Source: Escherichia phage vB_EcoS_P1338
Reading direction: 5' to 3' (one strand)
Length of the DNA: 41,129 nucleotides
Sequence record: PP882707.1
How positions within the stretch are numbered: the stretch's first letter is position 1; every line of letters starts with the position of its first letter. Of this stretch, positions 34,663 through 41,129 are shown in pieces. The translations under genes and the position numbers were made by a program. The notes beneath the pieces are model-generated. The model made no database searches. It worked only from the letters and a program-made list of their open reading frames with translations, and was not told the DNA's origin.

Positions 34663-37314
34663 TTAGGCAAACGCAAAGTCTGACTTCAGGATTTCTTGGA
34701 GGTCGAGAGAGCCTTTAGCTGGCATCTCAGGCATCTTGTCTAACTGTGATTCGTGTAACTGCTCGGCGAATTGCTCATAGAAGTCTGCAAGTACATCGTT
34801 CTCTTCGTAAGTGTTGACCATCGTTTCACGCACTGCTTTAAACAGGTTGCCAGCATCAGCAGGGATAGTACCAAAGGAGTCATGAATCAGTGCAAAGGAT
34901 TCCACACCGTAGACCTCATTGGAGCGGACCACAGTCATGCGCAGGTGGCTACCATCCATTGAGTGAACAAAGTTAGGTGCGATGCCTGACTCCTGTTTAC
35001 GAGCATCAATCCCGCTATCCTTGTTGGTGTTCACGGTAGGCTGTAGACGAATCTGGCCTAAGAACATTAGGTTCAAGCGGGTCTGTACTGGCTTCTTGTA
35101 TTCCTGCCAGACCGGGAAGCCATCAGGAGTTACCCAATGTACTGCGCAACGCTTGCGAAGAACCTCTTTGGTCTTCTTGTCCTTGACTTCAGCAGCTAGG
35201 AGTTTAGCCGCAGACTTCAGCCAGTTCATTGCTTCAACAGCAGCGACCACAGTCACTGTTACCGATTCCCAAATCAGTTTAGCCATATAGCCAGCCGCTT
35301 GGTTCGGTTGAGTGAACATCAAGCCTTTACCATCGTCGATAGCTGGCTGAATGGTGTCCTCTAGCACTTGGTCACGGAAGCCGTACTCCTTGGACCCGTA
35401 AGCCAACGTCATGACCGAACGCTTAGTGACCTTGCGAGTCACACCATATGCCAACCATTGACCCGCTAACTCTTTCGTTCCCAGCTTGAGCTTCTCAGTG
35501 ATTTCACCAGTGTCCTTGTTTGTCACTGTTTCCACTTCGTTATCAGTGCCGTTGATTACCGCTCCGCGGAGCATCTCGTTAACACGGTCAGCAACAATGC
35601 GATAGATGTCTTGGACTTCCTTGCTTGGCAACAGGTTAACCGCACGACCACCTACTTCATCACGAAGCATCGCGGAGAAGTGCTGAATACCAGAGCAGCT
35701 ACCATCGAACGCCAGCGGCAGAGAGCAGTTGTAGTTCATGCCGTGGTGTTGAACTCCAGCATACTCGAAGCAGAACGCGAGGAAGCAGAACGGAGAGTCC
35801 TGTTCGGCCCACCAAGTGTTGGCAATCGGGTCAGCCGCAACGCTCATTATGTTCTCATGGTTGTCCTCAATGAACTTAATGCGTTCTGCGAAGTCCACCT
35901 TGTCCACACCAGCAGTGTTAGCACCATGAATCTTCAGCCAGTAGTACCCATCGACACCAATCGGTTTACCTTTAGCGAGCGTCAGCAAGCCTTTGGTCAT
36001 GTCGTTGCCTTGCGGGTTAAACATTGGAACTGCATACACTCGACCGCGCCAGTCCATGTTCATCGGGAACCAGATAGCTTTAAACTGTGCGAACTTATTG
36101 GCTTGCCCTAACATGAACTCCATGCTCATGCGACGAGACACGCGAGCCTTCTCTTTGCGGTAGATTGCGGAGGCCGCTTTCTTCCACGCTTTGAGTGATG
36201 CCTCGTTCGTGTCGATGTCTTCAGGTTTGACAGGCAGTTCACCACGTTCGAGAGCAGGTACATCGTCAACCGGGCAATGCTTCCAGTTCACAATCTCGTT
36301 GACCACTGCCAGAACCTTCTTGTTAATCTTCCAAGGAGTATTCTGTGCGATGTTCACCGCCTTGTAAACTTCAGGCATGTACACGTCGTTGTAACGCTCA
36401 AGTCCCTTCTTGGAACCAGTACGAACCAGAGAGAGCGGCTTGCGACCAGCAGCCCAATAGCCACCACCAACCGGACTCGTCCAAGGCTTCGGGGGGACCA
36501 CGCAAGGTTGATACATCGGAGCGATTGCAGCCAGTGCACCAGCACGCTTAGATAACAGGTCAACGTATTGTTCGGTCAGTTGGATGTACTCGCCATCCTT
36601 CTCAACGTTACCAGCAAACGGTCGGTGTAACTCAACGAGACCAGTAGACCCAATGAGCAGTTCCAACATGCGTACACCAACATGAATTGACTCTTCAGGT
36701 GTCCATGTGGTCCACTTGGTTTGCAGTTGACCAGCATCTAACATCTTACCTTCAACCGCTTGCATGAATGCCTTCTTGTAGACGATACCTACGCGCTTGT
36801 TGAGTGCTTCCTGTACATGGTTCTTAAAGTGCTTCGCTTCTTCGTCACGGATGCGACCAAAACGTAGCTCATCTTCAATACTGCGACCAATCTTAGTGGC
36901 GACCGATTGAAGGTTCGTGTATTCCTCTTTGGTCAAGCAAGCCAGTGTGACCTTCAGTGTGATGAATGCAGCAGCTTCAGGTGCAACCTTCTGTACCAAA
37001 TTGTAGGCCACTGGACGCTTGCCACGCTTAGCTTCCACTTCGGTGAACCAAGTGTTCCATGCTTCAATGAACTTAGGTGCGAGAGATGACAGGAGCGGTT
37101 TAGCCACTGCGTTATCACCGAACTCACCCGCTTTGATTTGACGTTCCATTGCCTTAAGGAAACGCTTCTCGCCTTCAGTGTGCGCTTCGTGTTCTAACTC
37201 AAGCTGCGTAGCTGCAAGCTGTGCGCCGTAATGGTCAGCCAGAATGTTGTACGGCTGAATTGCGTTAGCGATGTCAGAAAAGTCATTCTTTGGTGCATTG
37301 ATTACGTTAGTCAT
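34663..37314 (-). CDS. gp1: DNA-directed RNA polymerase (single-subunit, T7 RNAP type)
   Basis: 883 aa, same length as T7 RNAP and collinear throughout; palm and specificity-loop blocks conserved (NTNKDSGIDARKQESGIAPNFVHS, ALIHDSFGT, ending SDFAFA). Confidence 0.99.
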   Translation of the reverse strand: MTNVINAPKNDFSDIANAIQPYNILADHYGAQLAATQLELEHEAHTEGEKRFLKAMERQIKAGEFGDNAVAKPLLSSLAPKFIEAWNTWFTEVEAKRGKRPVAYNLVQKVAPEAAAFITLKVTLACLTKEEYTNLQSVATKIGRSIEDELRFGRIRDEEAKHFKNHVQEALNKRVGIVYKKAFMQAVEGKMLDAGQLQTKWTTWTPEESIHVGVRMLELLIGSTGLVELHRPFAGNVEKDGEYIQLTEQYVDLLSKRAGALAAIAPMYQPCVVPPKPWTSPVGGGYWAAGRKPLSLVRTGSKKGLERYNDVYMPEVYKAVNIAQNTPWKINKKVLAVVNEIVNWKHCPVDDVPALERGELPVKPEDIDTNEASLKAWKKAASAIYRKEKARVSRRMSMEFMLGQANKFAQFKAIWFPMNMDWRGRVYAVPMFNPQGNDMTKGLLTLAKGKPIGVDGYYWLKIHGANTAGVDKVDFAERIKFIEDNHENIMSVAADPIANTWWAEQDSPFCFLAFCFEYAGVQHHGMNYNCSLPLAFDGSCSGIQHFSAMLRDEVGGRAVNLLPSKEVQDIYRIVADRVNEMLRGAVINGTDNEVETVTNKDTGEITEKLKLGTKELAGQWLAYGVTRKVTKRSVMTLAYGSKEYGFRDQVLEDTIQPAIDDGKGLMFTQPNQAAGYMAKLIWESVTVTVVAAVEAMNWLKSAAKLLAAEVKDKKTKEVLRKRCAVHWVTPDGFPVWQEYKKPVQTRLNLMFLGQIRLQPTVNTNKDSGIDARKQESGIAPNFVHSMDGSHLRMTVVRSNEVYGVESFALIHDSFGTIPADAGNLFKAVRETMVNTYEENDVLADFYEQFAEQLHESQLDKMPEMPAKGSLDLQEILKSDFAFA

Positions 37315-37344
37315 TGTTGCCTCACGTTGTTAAGAAAGTTTATC

Positions 37345-37378
37345 TATAAAGGCCAGCAGTCAGTGCCGACCTTGAAGA
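37345..37378 (-). promoter_or_regulatory. hairpin between gene 0.7 and gene 1, candidate RNase III site (R1-like)
   Basis: minus strand AAGGTCGGCA-CTGAC-TGCTGGCCTT, ~10-bp stem with two G-U pairs. Confidence 0.4.
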
Positions 37379-37387
37379 TACACCTTA

Positions 37388-38491
37388 TCAGCCCATAAGA
37401 TGTGCGTCAATCAGTTTGTCAATCATCAGTGGTGCGCCAGCTTGGATAGCCAGACCGTCAGCCACTTGCCACTTGAAGCCGTTCACTTGGTCAACCTTGC
37501 GTACCGTTGCGTTGCCATTGCGAAGCCGGAAGTCATGCCGAACCGACCCCATGAGTATCTCAGCGCGGCGCTCATTTCTTTCGATTGCACCACGTTCCCT
37601 ACGGATTGCCATAAAGTGTAAGCGGTCACGTTTAGCCACACGTTCGGCGTGTTTACGGTTACGCTTGCGGCGCTTCATGTTGGCCTTGCGGTTGATGCGG
37701 AACGTGCCGTTCAGGTCACGCCTTGCCTTACGGTTGCGACACCGTTCAATGATGCGCTCGTTAGCTATCGCCTCGACCTCGGCAATCAGTGCATCAGGGT
37801 CTAAAGGGAAACCGTCCTCACGTTCACTGTCATGGGAGAAACTAACCGGGTCAGTGATGTACGGGACATCGTTGTCATCGAACATAATGTTCCCGTTGTG
37901 CATGTCGAAAGATGCAATGCCGTGGAAGAACTCACGAATCATCTTGCATGTCTCGATGAACTCCCTGCTAACGAACTCTTCGTACCAATCAGCATCACTG
38001 CCATAGCACTCTATGAACTCCTGTGCAGCACTCGCATATTTTGCGTGAGTGTCATTAGCGTATCGGTCGCAACTGTTCAAATGGTCCAATACAACCGTAT
38101 AGCAACCCGCATGACGTGCTACGTGATAGACGTTAGGGATACCCGCTCGGCCTTGATGCATCCTACAGAATGCAGTGTATGCAGCGCCTGAATCCTCTTT
38201 CTTAAAGCCAACCTTAATGACTCGACCCGGTAACATTTCGTGCGAGTAGGCCGCGCTGAAGTGACCATTGCCTAACATGCGGAAACCTGCATCGCACATC
38301 AGTGCACCCAATGTGTGCCACCAGTCTTGATACTCCAAGCCATTTGAGCCATCAGTATCGTTGCCATCGCTTGTCTCACCGTTCACGATGTCAGCAGCCA
38401 GTGCAACCAGAAGAGTCTGGCGCTTGTCCAGTTCGCTAATCGGGAGTGACTTGATGATTGCCAGACGTGCCTGAATGTCGGTGTAGTTCAT
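37388..38491 (-). CDS. gp0.7: serine/threonine protein kinase / host transcription shutoff protein
   Basis: 367 aa; HQDWWHTLGALMCDAGFRMLGNGHFSAAYSH...VIKVGFKKEDSGAAYTAFCRM...IASFDMHNGNIMF...VPYITDPVSFS matches T7 gp0.7 by recollection. Confidence 0.9.
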   Translation of the reverse strand: MNYTDIQARLAIIKSLPISELDKRQTLLVALAADIVNGETSDGNDTDGSNGLEYQDWWHTLGALMCDAGFRMLGNGHFSAAYSHEMLPGRVIKVGFKKEDSGAAYTAFCRMHQGRAGIPNVYHVARHAGCYTVVLDHLNSCDRYANDTHAKYASAAQEFIECYGSDADWYEEFVSREFIETCKMIREFFHGIASFDMHNGNIMFDDNDVPYITDPVSFSHDSEREDGFPLDPDALIAEVEAIANERIIERCRNRKARRDLNGTFRINRKANMKRRKRNRKHAERVAKRDRLHFMAIRRERGAIERNERRAEILMGSVRHDFRLRNGNATVRKVDQVNGFKWQVADGLAIQAGAPLMIDKLIDAHLMG

Positions 38492-38525
38492 TAGATTGTG
38501 TCCTATTTAGTTAAACTTTAAGAGA
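38476..38525 (-). repeat. copy 1 of a repeated translation-initiation cassette (leader + ATG + first codons) heading gene 0.7
   Basis: core cattagattgtgtcctatttagtt shared with 38769..38792 and 38951..38974; extended ~50-nt match to the copy at 38938..38992 including codons MNYTD. Confidence 0.8.
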
Positions 38526-38570
38526 TAGAGAGAAGAGTGTTAATGTGGTTAACTTCAATAATCTTGATTT

Positions 38571-38771
38571 TCACCTTACAATCTCTGCGTCCAATACTGA
38601 TACTCTAACTAATATCCCAGCGCCATTTTTAACTATGAATCCGTCTGAATTTGGCGCTATTTCAAAAACAAAATATTCTTCACCTGATTTAAGTAAGTAT
38701 TCATCAATATCAATTCTAGGTTTATTATTTCTTGGTTTGAATTTAATAAATAGCGGTCGTTCGTTAATCAT
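38571..38771 (-). CDS. hypothetical 66-aa protein, strongly AT-rich gene headed by cassette copy 2
   Basis: MINERPLFIKFKPRNNKPRIDIDEYLLKSGEEYFVFEIAPNSDGFIVKNGAGILVRVSVLDAEIVR; about 32 percent G+C by hand count against roughly 50 percent for the flanking genes. Confidence 0.55.
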   Translation of the reverse strand: MINERPLFIKFKPRNNKPRIDIDEYLLKSGEEYFVFEIAPNSDGFIVKNGAGILVRVSVLDAEIVR

Positions 38772-38800
38772 TAGATTGTGTCCTATTTAGTTTAAGAAAG
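38769..38800 (-). repeat. copy 2 of the repeated translation-initiation cassette
   Basis: cattagattgtgtcctatttagtt followed by a divergent leader. Confidence 0.8.
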
Positions 38801-38953
38801 AGAATTGAGGATTAAACGCGCTTCTTTACATGCCTTTGCTACCTTTCTGGCGGGTATCCTCTTCAGGTGCAATGCCTTCATTAGAGTCTCGTTGGTAGCA
38901 CCATATGCCAGTGTGTACAGAACTTTCTTAGTTAAACTATCGGTGTAGTTCAT
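38792..38953 (-). CDS. hypothetical 53-aa protein headed by cassette copy 3, sharing the MNYTD start of gp0.7
   Basis: hand-derived ORF MNYTDSLTKKVLYTLAYGATNETLMKALHLKRIPARKVAKACKEARLILNSLS; first 15 coding nt identical to gene 0.7. Confidence 0.4.
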   Translation of the reverse strand: MNYTDSLTKKVLYTLAYGATNETLMKALHLKRIPARKVAKACKEARLILNSLS

Positions 38954-38992
38954 TAGATTGTGTCCTATTTAGTTAGTTAAACTTTAAGAGAG
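38938..38992 (-). repeat. copy 3 of the repeated translation-initiation cassette
   Basis: gtgtagttcattagattgtgtcctatttagttagttaaactttaagagag; differs from copy 1 by a 4-nt insertion. Confidence 0.8.
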
Positions 38993-39247
38993 AGCGTTCA
39001 ATGTATTGGTTAATGCTTGCTCGAGTGCTGCGAGCTTCTGCGCTTTTAGCTTGGCCTTTCGTCTATGCCATGCAGCCCGCTCCTGTTCCTTGCGCCTTTC
39101 TAGGTTGTTCTCGCGCCAAGTTCTCACGATACGCCTATTTGCTGCATTGAGTGTGCCATTAGACCTATAGCCTTTCTTCAGCGCTTTATTCTGCGCCCCT
39201 GCGTCCAGAGCGTGTACCAAGTTTGCGGCGTTAATGTGTTGCAACAT
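38984..39247 (-). CDS. hypothetical basic, Ala/Lys/Arg-rich early protein
   Basis: track ORF 38984..39256 (GTG) trimmed to the first ATG; GGTAGGTG Shine-Dalgarno-like; 87 aa. Confidence 0.5.
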   Translation of the reverse strand: MLQHINAANLVHALDAGAQNKALKKGYRSNGTLNAANRRIVRTWRENNLERRKEQERAAWHRRKAKLKAQKLAALEQALTNTLNALS

Positions 39248-39428
39248 AGAAGACACCTACCTTGTTAGCCTTAAAGCGCCCGTTGCGTTCACGGACTGTG
39301 AATCGTGGTAGAAAGCCATACTTCAGGTGCGAGAAGTTAGCCTTGTGTACCTTGAGACCCTTTGTGAAGTCCTTCAGGAAGTACAGCGTGATTAGAGTGT
39401 AAACGAGTGCGACAAATACGTATAACAT
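39231..39428 (-). CDS. hypothetical 65-aa early protein with N-terminal transmembrane helix
   Basis: ATG preceded by AAGGTG; MLYVFVALVYTLITLYFL hydrophobic start; overlaps neighbouring ORFs in other frames. Confidence 0.45.
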   Translation of the reverse strand: MLYVFVALVYTLITLYFLKDFTKGLKVHKANFSHLKYGFLPRFTVRERNGRFKANKVGVFYVATH

Positions 39429-39564
39429 GTGGTGTCACCTTATAGAGTGCAAAGAGAGTTATTAATAGTGCGACGATGCCTAAGTTTGTGATGCCTGTGA
39501 TGTGCTTAGAGCCGCCTGTTACCTGCCATCCTGTGAAGAACCATCCAGACCAGTTAGTGAACAT
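39337..39564 (-). CDS. hypothetical 75-aa early protein with a central hydrophobic segment
   Basis: ATG inside the gene 0.4 3' end with GAGGA 9 nt upstream; ITNLGIVALLITLFALY hydrophobic stretch; 3' third overlaps the next ORF. Confidence 0.45.
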   Translation of the reverse strand: MFTNWSGWFFTGWQVTGGSKHITGITNLGIVALLITLFALYKVTPHVIRICRTRLHSNHAVLPEGLHKGSQGTQG

Positions 39565-39727
39565 TTAGTTTGTCCTCATCATTGTCAAGTGCAATTGCTT
39601 TGTTGTTGTCGTACAGTTCTTTTAGCTGGGCCATTGCGAGTCCCCAATCGAACCCGCAACGCACCATGTCACTATAGAACAATACAGTTTGAGCGGTCAG
39701 ACCGTATTGCGTGGTGTTGTTAGCCAT
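39554..39727 (-). CDS. gp0.4: gp0.4-like small protein (FtsZ inhibitor in T7)
   Basis: 57-aa ORF found by hand (under the track's 60-aa cut-off): [47 protein letters not shown]..., close to remembered T7 gp0.4; ATG overlaps the Ocr stop (TAATG). Confidence 0.75.
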   Translation of the reverse strand: MANNTTQYGLTAQTVLFYSDMVRCGFDWGLAMAQLKELYDNNKAIALDNDEDKLNVH

Positions 39728-40080
39728 TACTCTCCATCCTCCTCGTACTCTTCGACTTCCTCAAGATACTCGTTCAGTAAGTCTTCTGCGTCCTCCCAAA
39801 TGTCGATTGTGAGTTGCTCATAGATACGCGCTTGCAGGATACGGATAACGTCTTTGGTGTCCGGCATCAGACCAGAGTCTTCGAACTCAAGGTCAATGCC
39901 TTCGCTTGCCATTACACTGAAAATGTCGCTGTAGTAGTGCGGAACAGCATTATCAGCCACCATATGCACTGCATCGTGCAGGTCATCAGCGTCACGAATG
40001 TCATCATAACGGATGTTTTCTTTCAGCATTTCGTAAGCGTGGTCGAAAACGTTGTGATAAGTCATGTTAGACATAGCCAT
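39727..40080 (-). CDS. gp0.3: Ocr, DNA-mimic anti-restriction protein (inhibits type I R-M; also BREX in T7)
   Basis: 117 aa, same length as T7 Ocr and near-identical by recollection (MAMSNMTY...[44 protein letters not shown]). Confidence 0.95.
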
Positions 40081-40104
40081 TGTGTGTTACCTCATTGTGT
40101 GTGA

Positions 40105-40160
40105 TTAGTAGTGAATATCATAAAGGGCACCTTGCGATACCCTTGAGTTATCCGCTACGT
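40105..40160 (-). promoter_or_regulatory. RNase III processing site upstream of gene 0.3 (R0.3-like)
   Basis: minus strand TAGCGGATAACTCAAGGGTATCGCAAGGTGCCCTTTATGATATTCACTA matches the remembered T7 R0.3 region almost base for base. Confidence 0.7.
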
Positions 40161-40426
40161 GTGTACACTCAGTTACCGTGTCAACGATGTCGCCACACTC
40201 TACCATAACAACCATTCTTATGGTCTAAGGAATTACGGCGGGTTTTGTATGTCAGTTTTACTTTCATGGTAGTTCCTATTTTGTAGGTTTGCCTTACAGA
40301 CTACTTTGATTTGTTTACCGTGTCTGCATACTCCAGTAAACGGTGCTATCCGTAGCGAGTATCCGGCAGGTTTCGCAGTTCCTATCCGTTCTCTCTTTTT
40401 GCTGACTCGTTGTCAGCTTGTGGTAC

Positions 40427-40455
40427 ATCGTACCGTGTTTACTGCATGTTGTCAA
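40427..40455 (-). promoter_or_regulatory. host sigma70 early promoter A3
   Basis: minus strand TTGACA-17 nt-TACGAT within GGTTGACAACATGCAGTAAACACGGTACGATGTACC, near-identical to remembered T7 A3. Confidence 0.8.
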
Positions 40456-40551
40456 CCATCTTGTTTCGCTTTGTGTGCCGTGGTGCGCTTAAGTCACCTA
40501 GAAGACACCGTGCTCCAGTGTTGACGTTACTAGTGTTACCTAGCGTTGTGT

Positions 40552-40581
40552 ATCTTACTACATGTTACTTCGTGTTGTCAA
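40552..40581 (-). promoter_or_regulatory. host sigma70 early promoter A2
   Basis: minus strand AAAAACAGGCATTGACAACACGAAGTAACATGTAGTAAGAT, -35 TTGACA and -10 TAAGAT as in remembered T7 A2. Confidence 0.8.
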
Positions 40582-40678
40582 TGCCTGTTTTTCGTATGAC
40601 TTATCAGGCTGTCTACTTGACCACTTGACTAGTGGCATCTCAGCTATCCGGTGTTACCGTGTCGCCTTGATGTGATGA

Positions 40679-40706
40679 ATAATACACTATCTAATCTTAG
40701 AGTCAA
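40679..40706 (-). promoter_or_regulatory. host sigma70 early promoter A1
   Basis: minus strand TTGACT-16 nt-TATTAT. Confidence 0.65.
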
Positions 40707-40791
40707 TACTTAAAGTAACAAATAGTCGTCTTTAAGTAGTCTTTAAGTTATCCCTATAAGGAAGGGAATAGTAATAAGACTATAAACAACC

Positions 40792-40814
40792 ATTCCCAAT
40801 AGTGAGTCGCATTA
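40792..40814 (-). promoter_or_regulatory. T7-type promoter at the phage left end (phiOL-like)
   Basis: minus strand TAATGCGACTCACTATTGGGAAT. Confidence 0.7.
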
Positions 40815-40839
40815 GCTGTATGGTCTTTAAGGCTGGTCT

Positions 40840-41129
40840 AATAGTGGTAACGATAGGTGTCTATAGACTGAAGGCACCGACTGAAGGTTAACATAAGGAG
40901 AGGCAGCCATAAGGATAGACATAAGGTTAGCGTAGCTAATAAGAGGTGACATAAGGTGTTAACTCTAAGAGGAAACATAAGGTGATTACAGATAGGGACA
41001 CAGAGAGGACTACATATAGTGGTCATAATGTCCCCCCACACACCATATCTAGTGGTAACACCCAAAGTTAACCCAATGTCTCACATAAGGTTAGCGGAGC
41101 TAACAAGGATTGACATTAAGTGAACCATA
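40840..41129. repeat. array of short direct repeats (ACATAAGG units) at the phage left end, including a block resembling the T7 left terminal region
   Basis: acataagg recurs at least six times; minus-strand GGGTGTTACC...CTCTCTGTGTCCCTATCTGT matches remembered T7 left-end sequence. Confidence 0.45.

Follow-up and report, generated by a model that had tools for sequence, protein, structure and literature searches.

Three overlapping small early genes of Escherichia phage vB_EcoS_P1338, probably separate cistrons, and the possibly overprinted tail of the first of them

The interval behind gp0.4 in the early region of Escherichia phage vB_EcoS_P1338 (PP882707.1; the whole stretch of 41,129 nt that was analysed is called the window) raises the question of whether its three small, overlapping reading frames are separate genes, parts of a recoded product or the result of an indel. 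In this study, which was based on a comparison with related phages, we conclude that they are very probably three separate, independently initiated cistrons that follow one another without intergenic space in the early operon of a T7-like phage. All three ORFs lie on the minus strand and begin with an ATG: one of 75 aa at 39337..39564, one of 65 aa at 39231..39428 and one of 87 aa at 38984..39247, which would have 90 aa (38984..39256) if a GTG were used. They agree with the ORF listing, their frames all differ, each being +1 relative to the preceding one, and they overlap by 92 nt (39337..39428, minus strand) and by the 17 nt ATGTTGCAACACATTAA (39231..39247, minus strand) where gene 0.6 ends and the 87-aa ORF begins. 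A Shine-Dalgarno sequence is found on the same strand 6-8 nt before each ATG: GAGGA for the 75-aa ORF (39573..39577, 8 nt, within the 3' end of gp0.4), AAGGTGA for gene 0.6 (39435..39441, 6 nt, within the 75-aa ORF) and AAGGTAGGTG for the 87-aa ORF (39254..39263, 6 nt, within gene 0.6). The first-pass annotation, which was made from the sequence alone, had thus described the three ORFs, their plausible ribosome-binding sites and the physical properties of their products correctly, the latter as judged by hydropathy and pI calculation. Since the window holds 85 ATG-ORFs of at least 65 aa, ORF length alone is no evidence of a gene. All three ORFs matched PHROG families: the 75-aa protein phrog_27091 (E = 1.8e-12, residues 4-75), the 65-aa protein phrog_2385 (E = 3.3e-27, residues 1-65) and the 87-aa protein phrog_8393 (E = 3.7e-13, profile positions 53-104). 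In a Pfam search, these three products and those of three neighbouring small genes gave only sub-threshold noise.

The interval has Ocr, gp0.4 and the gp0.7 kinase as its flanking neighbours. Upstream, the same strand carries three sites that resemble sigma-70 promoters, and the early region of the window best matches Berlinvirus phages. The gp0.4 homologue (57 aa; 39554..39727, minus strand) belongs to phrog_7202 (E = 3.1e-31) and aligns to T7 gp0.4, and Pfam Phage_T7_GP04 was found on the gp0.4 homologues of the loci L009 and L011. It overlaps the 75-aa ORF by 11 nt (39554-39564, minus strand), and its 6-residue C-terminal extension holds the Shine-Dalgarno sequence and the ATG of the 75-aa gene. 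A chain of genes without gaps begins with this homologue.

The 75-aa protein belongs to the family of ORF2 of Yersinia phage Berlin. It has a hydrophobic segment at residues 24-40 and is predicted to be a small single-pass membrane protein; the features of the family, i.e., an aromatic SGWFFT N-terminus, an H-(I/L)-T-G-(I/L)-T motif, a transmembrane helix and a basic tail, are all present. Full-length matches were obtained using tblastn in PYPS50, Berlin and Yepe2, and P0001-P0005 are homologues. Berlin ORF2 (YP_918984) and its Yepe2 and PYPS50 counterparts share 37-48% identity and the transmembrane architecture with the 75-aa protein. The Yepe2 homologue is labelled as a putative ABC transporter, a label that no Pfam match supports. 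In vB_YpEc11, a 56-aa version with a short tail occurs, and gene 0.6 is absent. The T7 gene 0.5, which encodes a 47-aa hydrophobic protein, occupies the same position between 0.4 and 0.6, although the two have no sequence relationship (phrog_16572 versus phrog_27091).

The 65-aa protein corresponds to gene 0.6 (0.6A) of the T3/phiYeO3-12/Kvp1 type, for which tblastn revealed 673 phage records, and its full-length similarity, its N-terminal helix and its location in the early region upstream of 0.7 are those of gene 0.6. It has an N-terminal hydrophobic helix at residues 2-18 (hydropathy peak 2.25) followed by a basic soluble part, and is predicted to be an N-terminally anchored membrane protein. 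Its identity to Kvp1 gp0.6 is 81.5%. The relationship to T7 0.6A appears confined to the 3' end: the last ~37 nt of the T7 gene are identical to those of the window at 25 of 37 positions (ungapped), whereas upstream of them there is no evident likeness as judged by PHROG membership, T7 0.6A being the N-part of phrog_8393. T7 gp0.6 was reported to target MreB (bioRxiv 10.64898/2026.09.14.751387); as this may concern either 0.6 product, the function was not transferred to any ORF of the interval.

The 87-aa protein is homologous to the product of Kvp1 gene 0.62 and to the C-terminal portion of T7 '0.6B', the latter matching the same positions of the phrog_8393 profile. The first-pass annotation had noted no resemblance to T7 in any of the three products; for this one the opposite is true, because its residues 23-87 are 87.7% identical to resequenced T7. 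Relative to the T7 homologue it carries a 15-aa insertion at residues 4-18, and its identity to gp003 of Salmonella phage JSS1 is 98.9%. The family comprises 30 protein clusters, all 30 of which have the start Met in common; the lengths are 71-72 aa, apart from 87 aa in the two closest clusters, P0006 and P0007. An alignment of 19 sequences had 39 invariant columns and the conserved core GY..NGTL.AANRR.V..W..NNLE.RK.QE.AAWHR. The protein is strongly basic (pI 11.5; 18 K+R), and the AlphaFold model (mean pLDDT 79), with a short helix at 7-25 and a 52-residue helix at 35-86, predicts that it is largely alpha-helical. A Foldseek comparison of the model with the PDB gave no match below E = 6 and a PDB sequence-profile search nothing below E = 0.6; hence, no function was inferred from them.

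The arrangement of these genes varies among the relatives. Gene 0.6 occurs without the 75-aa gene in JSS1, Kvp1, K11 and phiYeO3-12. Berlin, vB_YpP_T3 and Yepe2 have a member of the 75-aa family but no functional 0.6; their 0.6 frame contains stops and a deletion and, in Yepe2, also lacks its ATG. Kluyvera phage Kvp1 (genes 0.6 and 0.62) and JSS1 (genes 002 and 003) have the 65-/87-aa pair of the window with the same 17-nt overlap. In both, 0.6 directly follows a SAM hydrolase gene, where the window has Ocr and gp0.4; as there is no 75-aa gene in these phages, there is no 92-nt overlap either. A single continuous gene in relatives, which the first-pass annotation had named as an observation that would make one frame an artefact, was not what we found: both genes occur in the same arrangement, or one occurs alone. 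Its placement of the region opposite T7 genes 0.5, 0.6A and 0.6B held, but the pair of the frameshift type is the 65-/87-aa pair with its 17-nt overlap, not the 75-/65-aa pair with 92 nt.

For the counterpart of the 65-/87-aa pair, the T7 and phiYeO3-12 records annotate a putative product of +1 frameshifting. Read in this way, a +1 shift in the 17-nt overlap, shortly before gene 0.6 ends, would make a fused '0.6B' that joins the transmembrane anchor of 0.6 to the basic helical part of 0.62, either instead of or besides independent initiation. The two frames are indeed in the +1 relation of those annotations, and the Shine-Dalgarno-like AAGGTAGGTG together with a stop in the shift window is loosely reminiscent of prfB. 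True recoding is seen in gene 10A/10B of the T7 group, with a -1 frameshift, and in E. coli prfB, where the +1 shift takes place at CUU UGA, 3 nt behind a Shine-Dalgarno sequence. These two systems share with the junction two overlapping frames and a Shine-Dalgarno-like element upstream of the stop; judged against the established prfB mechanism, however, the junction has no slippery codon and no stimulatory structure but a conserved independent start. The TAG within AAGGTAGGTG is a +1-frame stop 12 nt before the ATG of the 87-aa ORF, and none of the eight sense codons between it and the stop of 0.6 re-pairs in +1, i.e., the 9-codon shift window (GGT GTC TTC TAT GTT GCA ACA CAT before TAA) offers no such codon. 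Moreover, no conserved slippery heptamer was found in a scan of both overlaps, the folding of the RNA at the 17-nt overlap was ordinary (z = +1.0), and an Rfam scan of 37000-41129 with E up to 1 gave no match.

The distribution of the junction ATG also argues against a fused product. The downstream frame has initiation signals of its own, AAGGTAGGTG followed after 6 nt by the ATG, and the 17-nt geometry is common to T7, Kvp1, JSS1, pO103, P694, PC127 and L012 as well as to 17 of 24 IMG/VR loci. In T7 (NC_001604; GU071091, in which the 72-aa '0.6B protein' ORF spans 1781-1999), a downstream ORF that is homologous to the 87-aa ORF but lacks its 15-aa insertion likewise stands in +1 and has its ATG 17 nt ahead of the stop of the upstream gene. 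An ATG at -17 was present in all 11 database loci with a downstream +1 ORF, T7 included, and missing in K11 and PYPS50, both of which are without that ORF. A similar observation was made in the IMG/VR loci: a downstream ORF of at least 21 aa was found in 15 of the 17 with the junction ATG, while four of the seven without the ATG have no such ORF. The remaining three, which are phiYeO3-12-like, keep a downstream ORF that starts at a TTG, and this speaks for the fused product. Across about 38 loci, the junction ATG thus accompanies the downstream ORF, and at least six unrelated downstream ORFs of the IMG/VR loci, one of them of 281 aa, begin at it. The C-part of the phiYeO3-12 '0.6B' (phrog_10380) is in the window a free-standing gene at 38792-38953 with its own start signals, and the C-terminus of the T7 reference '0.6B' depends on a record in which, compared with resequenced T7, one base is missing and the ORF is thereby split. 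We therefore consider frameshifting at this junction unlikely, and these data do not support the recoding that the first-pass annotation had proposed. Because the ATG and the Shine-Dalgarno sequence are conserved, no codon is prone to slip and the RNA has no unusual structure, the best reading of the sequence is that the 87-aa ORF starts independently or by coupling, with MLQHINAANLVHALDAGAQNK as the predicted N-terminal peptide of the free protein; a low-level fused 0.6-0.62 product may be made in addition.

The tail of the 75-aa ORF (codons 46-75 and the stop) covers the part of gene 0.6 that encodes the transmembrane helix and the FLKDFTKGLKVHKA motif and reads it in -1; LHSNHAVLPEGLHK is an example of a peptide that the tail encodes, and its TAA stop comes from the conserved Ala-Asn codons of 0.6. 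The window shares the overlap of 92 nt, with both ORFs intact and the arrangement identical, with PYPS50, whose ORF has 76 aa, and with L009, L011, L012 and L019, all of them independent assemblies, and so it is not the indel that had been suspected. In P694, PC127 and pO103, the upstream gene was replaced, and AAGGTGA and a 41-codon remnant of the 75-aa frame were kept. In the genomes with an intact 0.6, the 0.6 frame within the overlap had a pN/pS of 0.25-0.26 (p about 0.005). For the 75-aa tail, the same genome pairs gave 0.7-1.3, which was not significant. Conversely, between Berlin and Yepe2, in whose clade the 0.6 downstream is a decayed remnant, the tail is under its own constraint, unlike in the window, with a pN/pS of 0.12 (7 synonymous and 3 nonsynonymous substitutions; p = 0.0009) compared to 2.05 for the dead 0.6 frame. 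These tests rest on 10-18 substitutions per pair in lineages that recombine. The substitutions in the overlap follow the 0.6 frame where this gene is intact; in the Berlin clade with its decayed 0.6, purifying selection acts on the tail of the 75-aa frame itself. In this phage, too, the tail could be functional, with an effect too weak to detect.

It is very improbable that the 92-nt overlap is itself a recoding site at which a +1 shift fuses the 75-aa head to 0.6 and yields a protein with two transmembrane helices. Relative to the 75-aa ORF, gene 0.6 does lie in +1, and AAA GGG at 39363 could re-pair in +1. However, the homologues of L009, L011 and L012 have P-Q-G where the window has H-K-G, 0.6 has a strong Shine-Dalgarno sequence and ATG of its own and is present without an upstream 75-aa ORF in hundreds of phages, a TGA in the 0.6 frame stands 9 nt upstream of its ATG, and the RNA structure of the overlap is not unusual (z = -0.5). 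A look for a slippery site in 39337..39428 had been proposed as well; the only candidate of the scan, A AAG GGT / AAA GGG at 39357-39363, is not conserved and was rejected as a recoding signal. An artefact, in which an indel or sequencing error deleted the stop of the 75-aa ORF or the ORF arose by chance, is just as improbable and largely refuted at the sequence level: the window has many chance ORFs of similar size and the tail shows no detectable constraint in the clades with an intact 0.6, but the same ORF, overlap and stop recur in the independent assemblies, purifying selection acts on the head outside the overlap (pN/pS 0.12-0.32 for comparisons inside the PYPS50/L012 and Berlin/Yepe2 clades and from one to the other), and the ORF remains intact at 76-78 aa in the Berlin clade, with its constrained tail, despite the decay of 0.6.

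As the relatives show each of the three to be a separate gene with its own start signal, neither a frameshift nor a sequencing error is needed. On the reading as three cistrons, the interval would belong to the early (class I) operon that is transcribed by host RNA polymerase, presumably from A1-A3-like promoters, in the order of the 75-aa membrane protein, gene 0.6 and the 87-aa basic protein. Each cistron would have its Shine-Dalgarno sequence and ATG within the 3' end of the gene before it, and no ribosomal frameshift would be required for any of the three products. The 17-nt overlap would be a conserved junction for translational coupling that doubles as a recombination joint, behind which varied downstream cassettes stand. 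What makes the 92-nt overlap is that the 75-aa gene lacks a stop ahead of the 0.6 start, so that its translation continues into 0.6 in the -1 frame. This frame is free of stops across the transmembrane segment because the second-position T of the 0.6 codons becomes a third-position T, and its first stop would be the one created by the Ala-Asn codons. The overlap sequence would here be dictated by 0.6, with the extended tail of the 75-aa protein as a translated passenger.

The ORFs, their homologies, the conserved starts and the frame-specific selection were established here, and together they describe an arrangement that is ordinary and for the most part known, to which overprinting adds a modest twist. 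The 31 codons of the 75-aa tail may be young coding sequence that arose when translation read through into the 0.6 transmembrane segment in -1, and the 56-aa protein of vB_YpEc11, with its short basic tail only, is presumed to be the ancestral form. The stages would be a passenger tail in this phage and purifying selection of its own in Berlin and Yepe2 after the decay of 0.6; if this is true, the relatives display successive stages in the birth of an overprinted sequence followed by the loss of its parent gene. Additionally, the 3' end of 0.6 may serve as a universal docking site, which provides a Shine-Dalgarno sequence, an ATG and the first five codons for exchangeable cassettes. The two proposals taken together, i.e., a young overprinted tail with its stages in the relatives and a docking site at the end of 0.6, form a tentative reading that we regard as possible rather than probable.

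The main practical value of these findings lies in annotation. The 65-/87-aa pair ought to be entered as the separate genes 0.6 and 0.62 instead of as a frameshift product, and the 75-aa gene is often missed or mislabelled, as in PYPS50, where it is unannotated, and in Yepe2, where it appears as an 'ABC transporter'. By analogy with other T7 class I products, the three proteins are probably host-envelope or host-takeover factors, and the early membrane and basic proteins of the interval can be considered candidates for host-takeover functions. No new mechanism is indicated by the three-gene interval; it illustrates that the small early genes of T7-like phages are exchanged at joints with a common start signal, and that overprinting can place a tail on the adjacent gene.

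The interval 38984-39564 is unexceptional: known small early genes are packed closely together in it as a mosaic. The window as a whole represents the genome of a T7-like phage (subfamily Studiervirinae) in reverse orientation; its early genes lie at the right end, on the minus strand, and the best matches of this early region are to Berlinvirus phages. The neighbours are homologues of Ocr/gp0.3 (39727-40080, minus strand) and gp0.4 (39554-39727, minus strand) and the gp0.7 kinase (37388-38491, minus strand). Three sigma-70 promoter-like sites that resemble T7 A1-A3 were located upstream of Ocr on the minus strand at 40706, 40581 and 40455 (span 40427-40706; TTGACT/TTGACA, 10/12 matches each). 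By sequence they are likely equivalents of these early promoters; in total, the scanned region has no more sigma-70-like sites than expected from shuffled sequence. Together, the neighbours and the promoter-like sites place the interval inside the class I early operon. All three ORFs that had been proposed in the first-pass annotation were found on the minus strand: a 75-aa ORF (39337-39564), a 65-aa ORF (39231-39428) and an 87-aa ORF (38984-39247 from its ATG, or 90 aa from a GTG further upstream). Their hydrophobic or basic character was borne out by hydropathy and charge computation, and their ribosome-binding sites by Shine-Dalgarno motifs 6-8 nt before each ATG (GAGGA, AAGGTGA and AAGGTAGGTG, respectively). 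ORF size by itself is no evidence, because the window holds 85 ATG-initiated ORFs of at least 65 aa. All three frames are used, each ORF being +1 relative to the preceding one. The successive overlaps are 1 nt (Ocr/gp0.4), 11 nt (gp0.4/75-aa ORF), 92 nt (75-aa/65-aa ORF) and 17 nt (65-aa/87-aa ORF), and thus five genes are packed between 40080 and 38984 without a single intergenic base.

The 75-aa ORF is a real gene, which belongs to the small family phrog_27091 (E = 1.8e-12). The family comprises a window-like clade (protein homologues P0001-P0003 and the relatives' loci L009, L011 and L019), 76-aa members in PYPS50, where the copy is unannotated, and in the locus L012, and 76-78-aa members in the Yersinia pestis phages Berlin, Yep-phi, vB_YpP_T3 and Yepe2, where they are labelled "ORF2" or, without support, "ABC transporter". 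The 56-aa version of Helsettvirus vB_YpEc11 covers profile positions 1-45 only, ends in a short basic tail and is not followed by a 0.6 gene. The pN/pS of the head (codons 1-43) was 0.12-0.32 in comparisons inside each of the PYPS50/L012 and Berlin/Yepe2 clades as well as across them, which indicates purifying selection. T7 0.5 occupies the same position but is not homologous. The 65-aa ORF is a T3/phiYeO3-12/Kvp1-type gene 0.6 (0.6A). Its PHROG family is phrog_2385 (E = 3.3e-27), tblastn finds it in 673 phage records, and it shares 81.5% identity with Kvp1 gp0.6.

The 87-aa ORF, whose homologue in Kvp1 is named gene 0.62, matches phrog_8393 (E = 3.7e-13) at profile positions 53-104. The basis of this profile is the fused 111-aa "0.6B" annotated in T7, with T7 0.6A at positions 1-53 and the T7 downstream ORF at 53-104. 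Using tblastn, residues 23-87 aligned with resequenced T7 in one piece at 87.7% identity; the match to the old T7 reference V01146 was broken into two pieces. The T7 reference NC_001604 (locus ~1096) is one A short compared with GU071091 (CAAGG-ACAA), which interrupts a conserved 72-aa ORF, so that the annotated 0.6B ends in a spurious C-terminus; GU071091 lists this ORF as a separate "0.6B protein" (1781-1999). Thus, the first-pass annotation was right to see the interval as the positional counterpart of the T7 0.5/0.6 region, but its statement that none of the ORFs resembles T7 fails for the 87-aa ORF, and the recoding that it proposed did not hold either. The 87-aa family is narrow and well conserved: the same Met start was present in all 30 clusters, and the length is 71-72 aa except in the two 87-aa clusters nearest the query. 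Compared with the shorter members, a 15-aa insertion (HINAANLVHALDAGA...; codons 4-18; 39194-39238, minus strand) was found only in the window phage, vB_EcoS_P1338, and in JSS1; it falls in an extra N-terminal helix of the AlphaFold model, at moderate confidence.

A Pfam search gave no matches. The model of the 87-aa protein (mean pLDDT 79) consists of a short helix (residues 7-25), a loop with an invariant G-Y..N-G-T-L motif and a 52-residue basic helix, and neither structure nor sequence retrieved an informative PDB neighbour. T7 gp0.6 reportedly acts on MreB (bioRxiv 10.64898/2026.09.14.751387), which is no more than a lead for the 87-aa protein. Single-pass membrane topology with basic cytoplasmic parts is predicted for the 75-aa and 65-aa proteins, which could plausibly serve in host-envelope takeover or exclusion.

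The same 92-nt overlap with the same TAA end is present in PYPS50, L012, L009, L011 and L019, and therefore it is not an indel, as had been suggested, or an assembly artefact of the window genome. A frameshift in this overlap has no support either. The sole slip-prone motif there (AAA GGG / A AAG GGT, 39357-39363) is not conserved, the homologues in L009, L011 and L012 having P-Q-G versus H-K-G in the window; RNA folding of the overlap gave a z-score of -0.5; a TGA closes the 0.6 frame 9 nt before the 0.6 ATG; and 0.6 has its own start signals and occurs without the upstream 75-aa ORF in hundreds of phages. The overlap length is explained by the frame relation between the two genes. Each third position in the 75-aa frame coincides with a second position in 0.6. 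Throughout the transmembrane helix this base is T, and therefore no stop is possible along that stretch; only the conserved Ala-Asn codons of 0.6 (GCT AAC) create the first one. In phages without the 75-aa gene, this frame likewise stays open between the 0.6 start and that stop. In P694, PC127 and pO103, the head is swapped for a 0.45-like gene and a 40-41-codon remnant of the 75-aa frame, including the 0.6 Shine-Dalgarno, is kept. The window and L011 differ at 1/129 nt of the head, whereas the overlap carries 14 substitutions over 33 codons. Both the replacement and this contrast point to a putative recombination joint shortly before the start of 0.6.

Where 0.6 is intact (PYPS50 vs L012; window vs L011), the pN/pS was 0.25-0.26 in the 0.6 frame (p about 0.005) and 0.7-1.3 in the 75-aa tail (not significant). 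Where it is decayed (Berlin vs Yepe2), the values were 2.05 and 0.12 (7 synonymous, 3 nonsynonymous; p = 0.0009), with 1.83 in the third frame as a control. Decayed remnants with in-frame stops and a large deletion were located in Berlin (930-1090 of its locus), Yepe2 (1190-1300) and the locus L016. The 0.6 frame of Berlin and vB_YpP_T3 is interrupted by two stops, one following codon 13 and one following KANL, and the gene is mostly deleted. Yepe2 shares the first of these stops and no longer has the ATG; its deletion is larger and joins the 75-aa-family ORF to the final 0.6 codons in a 78-aa protein ending THSHN. These data are suggestive of an overlap that evolves as 0.6 in the window phage, the extended 75-aa tail being a translated passenger, and of a tail that is constrained in its own right where 0.6 was lost. 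This reading is suggestive and not proven because the counts are small and the lineages recombine. The tail looks like an overprinted extension that came under selection only once a sister clade had lost the overlapped gene.

Further small ORFs lie between 0.6 and 0.7. Direct repeats of 36 nt (38478-38513, 38758-38793 and 38940-38975; on the minus strand AACTAAATAGGACACAATCTAATGAACTACACCGA), two identical and one at 75%, look like recombination joints for inserted gene cassettes. The repeat is a common start region, which takes in the opening codons (MNYTD) both of gene 0.7 and of a 53-aa ORF (38792-38953, minus strand), and it covers in part the start of a 66-aa ORF (38571-38771, minus strand; phrog_29417, E = 9.7e-31). 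The latter, whose protein is identical to that of a PC127 gene, is another inserted cassette.

The 17-nt overlap is the real counterpart of the T7 0.6A/0.6B junction, for which a putative +1 frameshift is annotated in the records of T7 and phiYeO3-12. The junction reads ATGACAGAACGCACTGA in T7 and ATGTTGCAACACATTAA in the window, with the downstream ORF +1 in both, and the last 37 nt of the otherwise unlike upstream genes are identical at 25/37 positions (ungapped comparison). Several results argue for independent or coupled initiation of the downstream ORF rather than a +1 frameshift. All 11 database loci with a +1 ORF downstream have the junction ATG; K11 and PYPS50 lack such an ORF and carry TATATC and TACATC at the position of the ATG. 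Among 24 IMG/VR loci, 17 have the ATG, followed in 15 by an ORF of at least 21 aa, while of the seven without it four have no such ORF and three (phiYeO3-12-like) have one from TTG. At least six unrelated downstream ORFs start at the junction ATG, one of 281 aa, and they have just the first five codons in common, because the overlap with 0.6 imposes these. The 281-aa ORF directly follows the 0.6 homologue in IMGVR_UViG_3300045988_000695. The C-terminal part of phiYeO3-12 0.6B belongs to phrog_10380, as do the 53-aa ORF of the window, a separate gene that has start signals of its own and is not preceded by any frame from which a ribosome could shift, and a 54-aa ORF after 0.6 in P694 and PC127; the window therefore holds both kinds of "0.6B C-part" as separate genes. 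In the window and T7, a TAG ends the +1 frame 12 nt before the ATG and leaves nine codons for a shift, none of which is able to re-pair in +1. The RNA folding of the junction was unremarkable (z = +1.0) and an Rfam scan gave no match. With a conserved ATG and Shine-Dalgarno, no re-pairing codon and no RNA signal, 0.6B-like recoding of the 0.6/0.62 pair, as annotated for T7 and phiYeO3-12, was not upheld. The 3' end of 0.6 would rather act as a shared start site for swappable cassettes downstream of it, and this undermines the long-standing annotation of a "0.6B frameshift".
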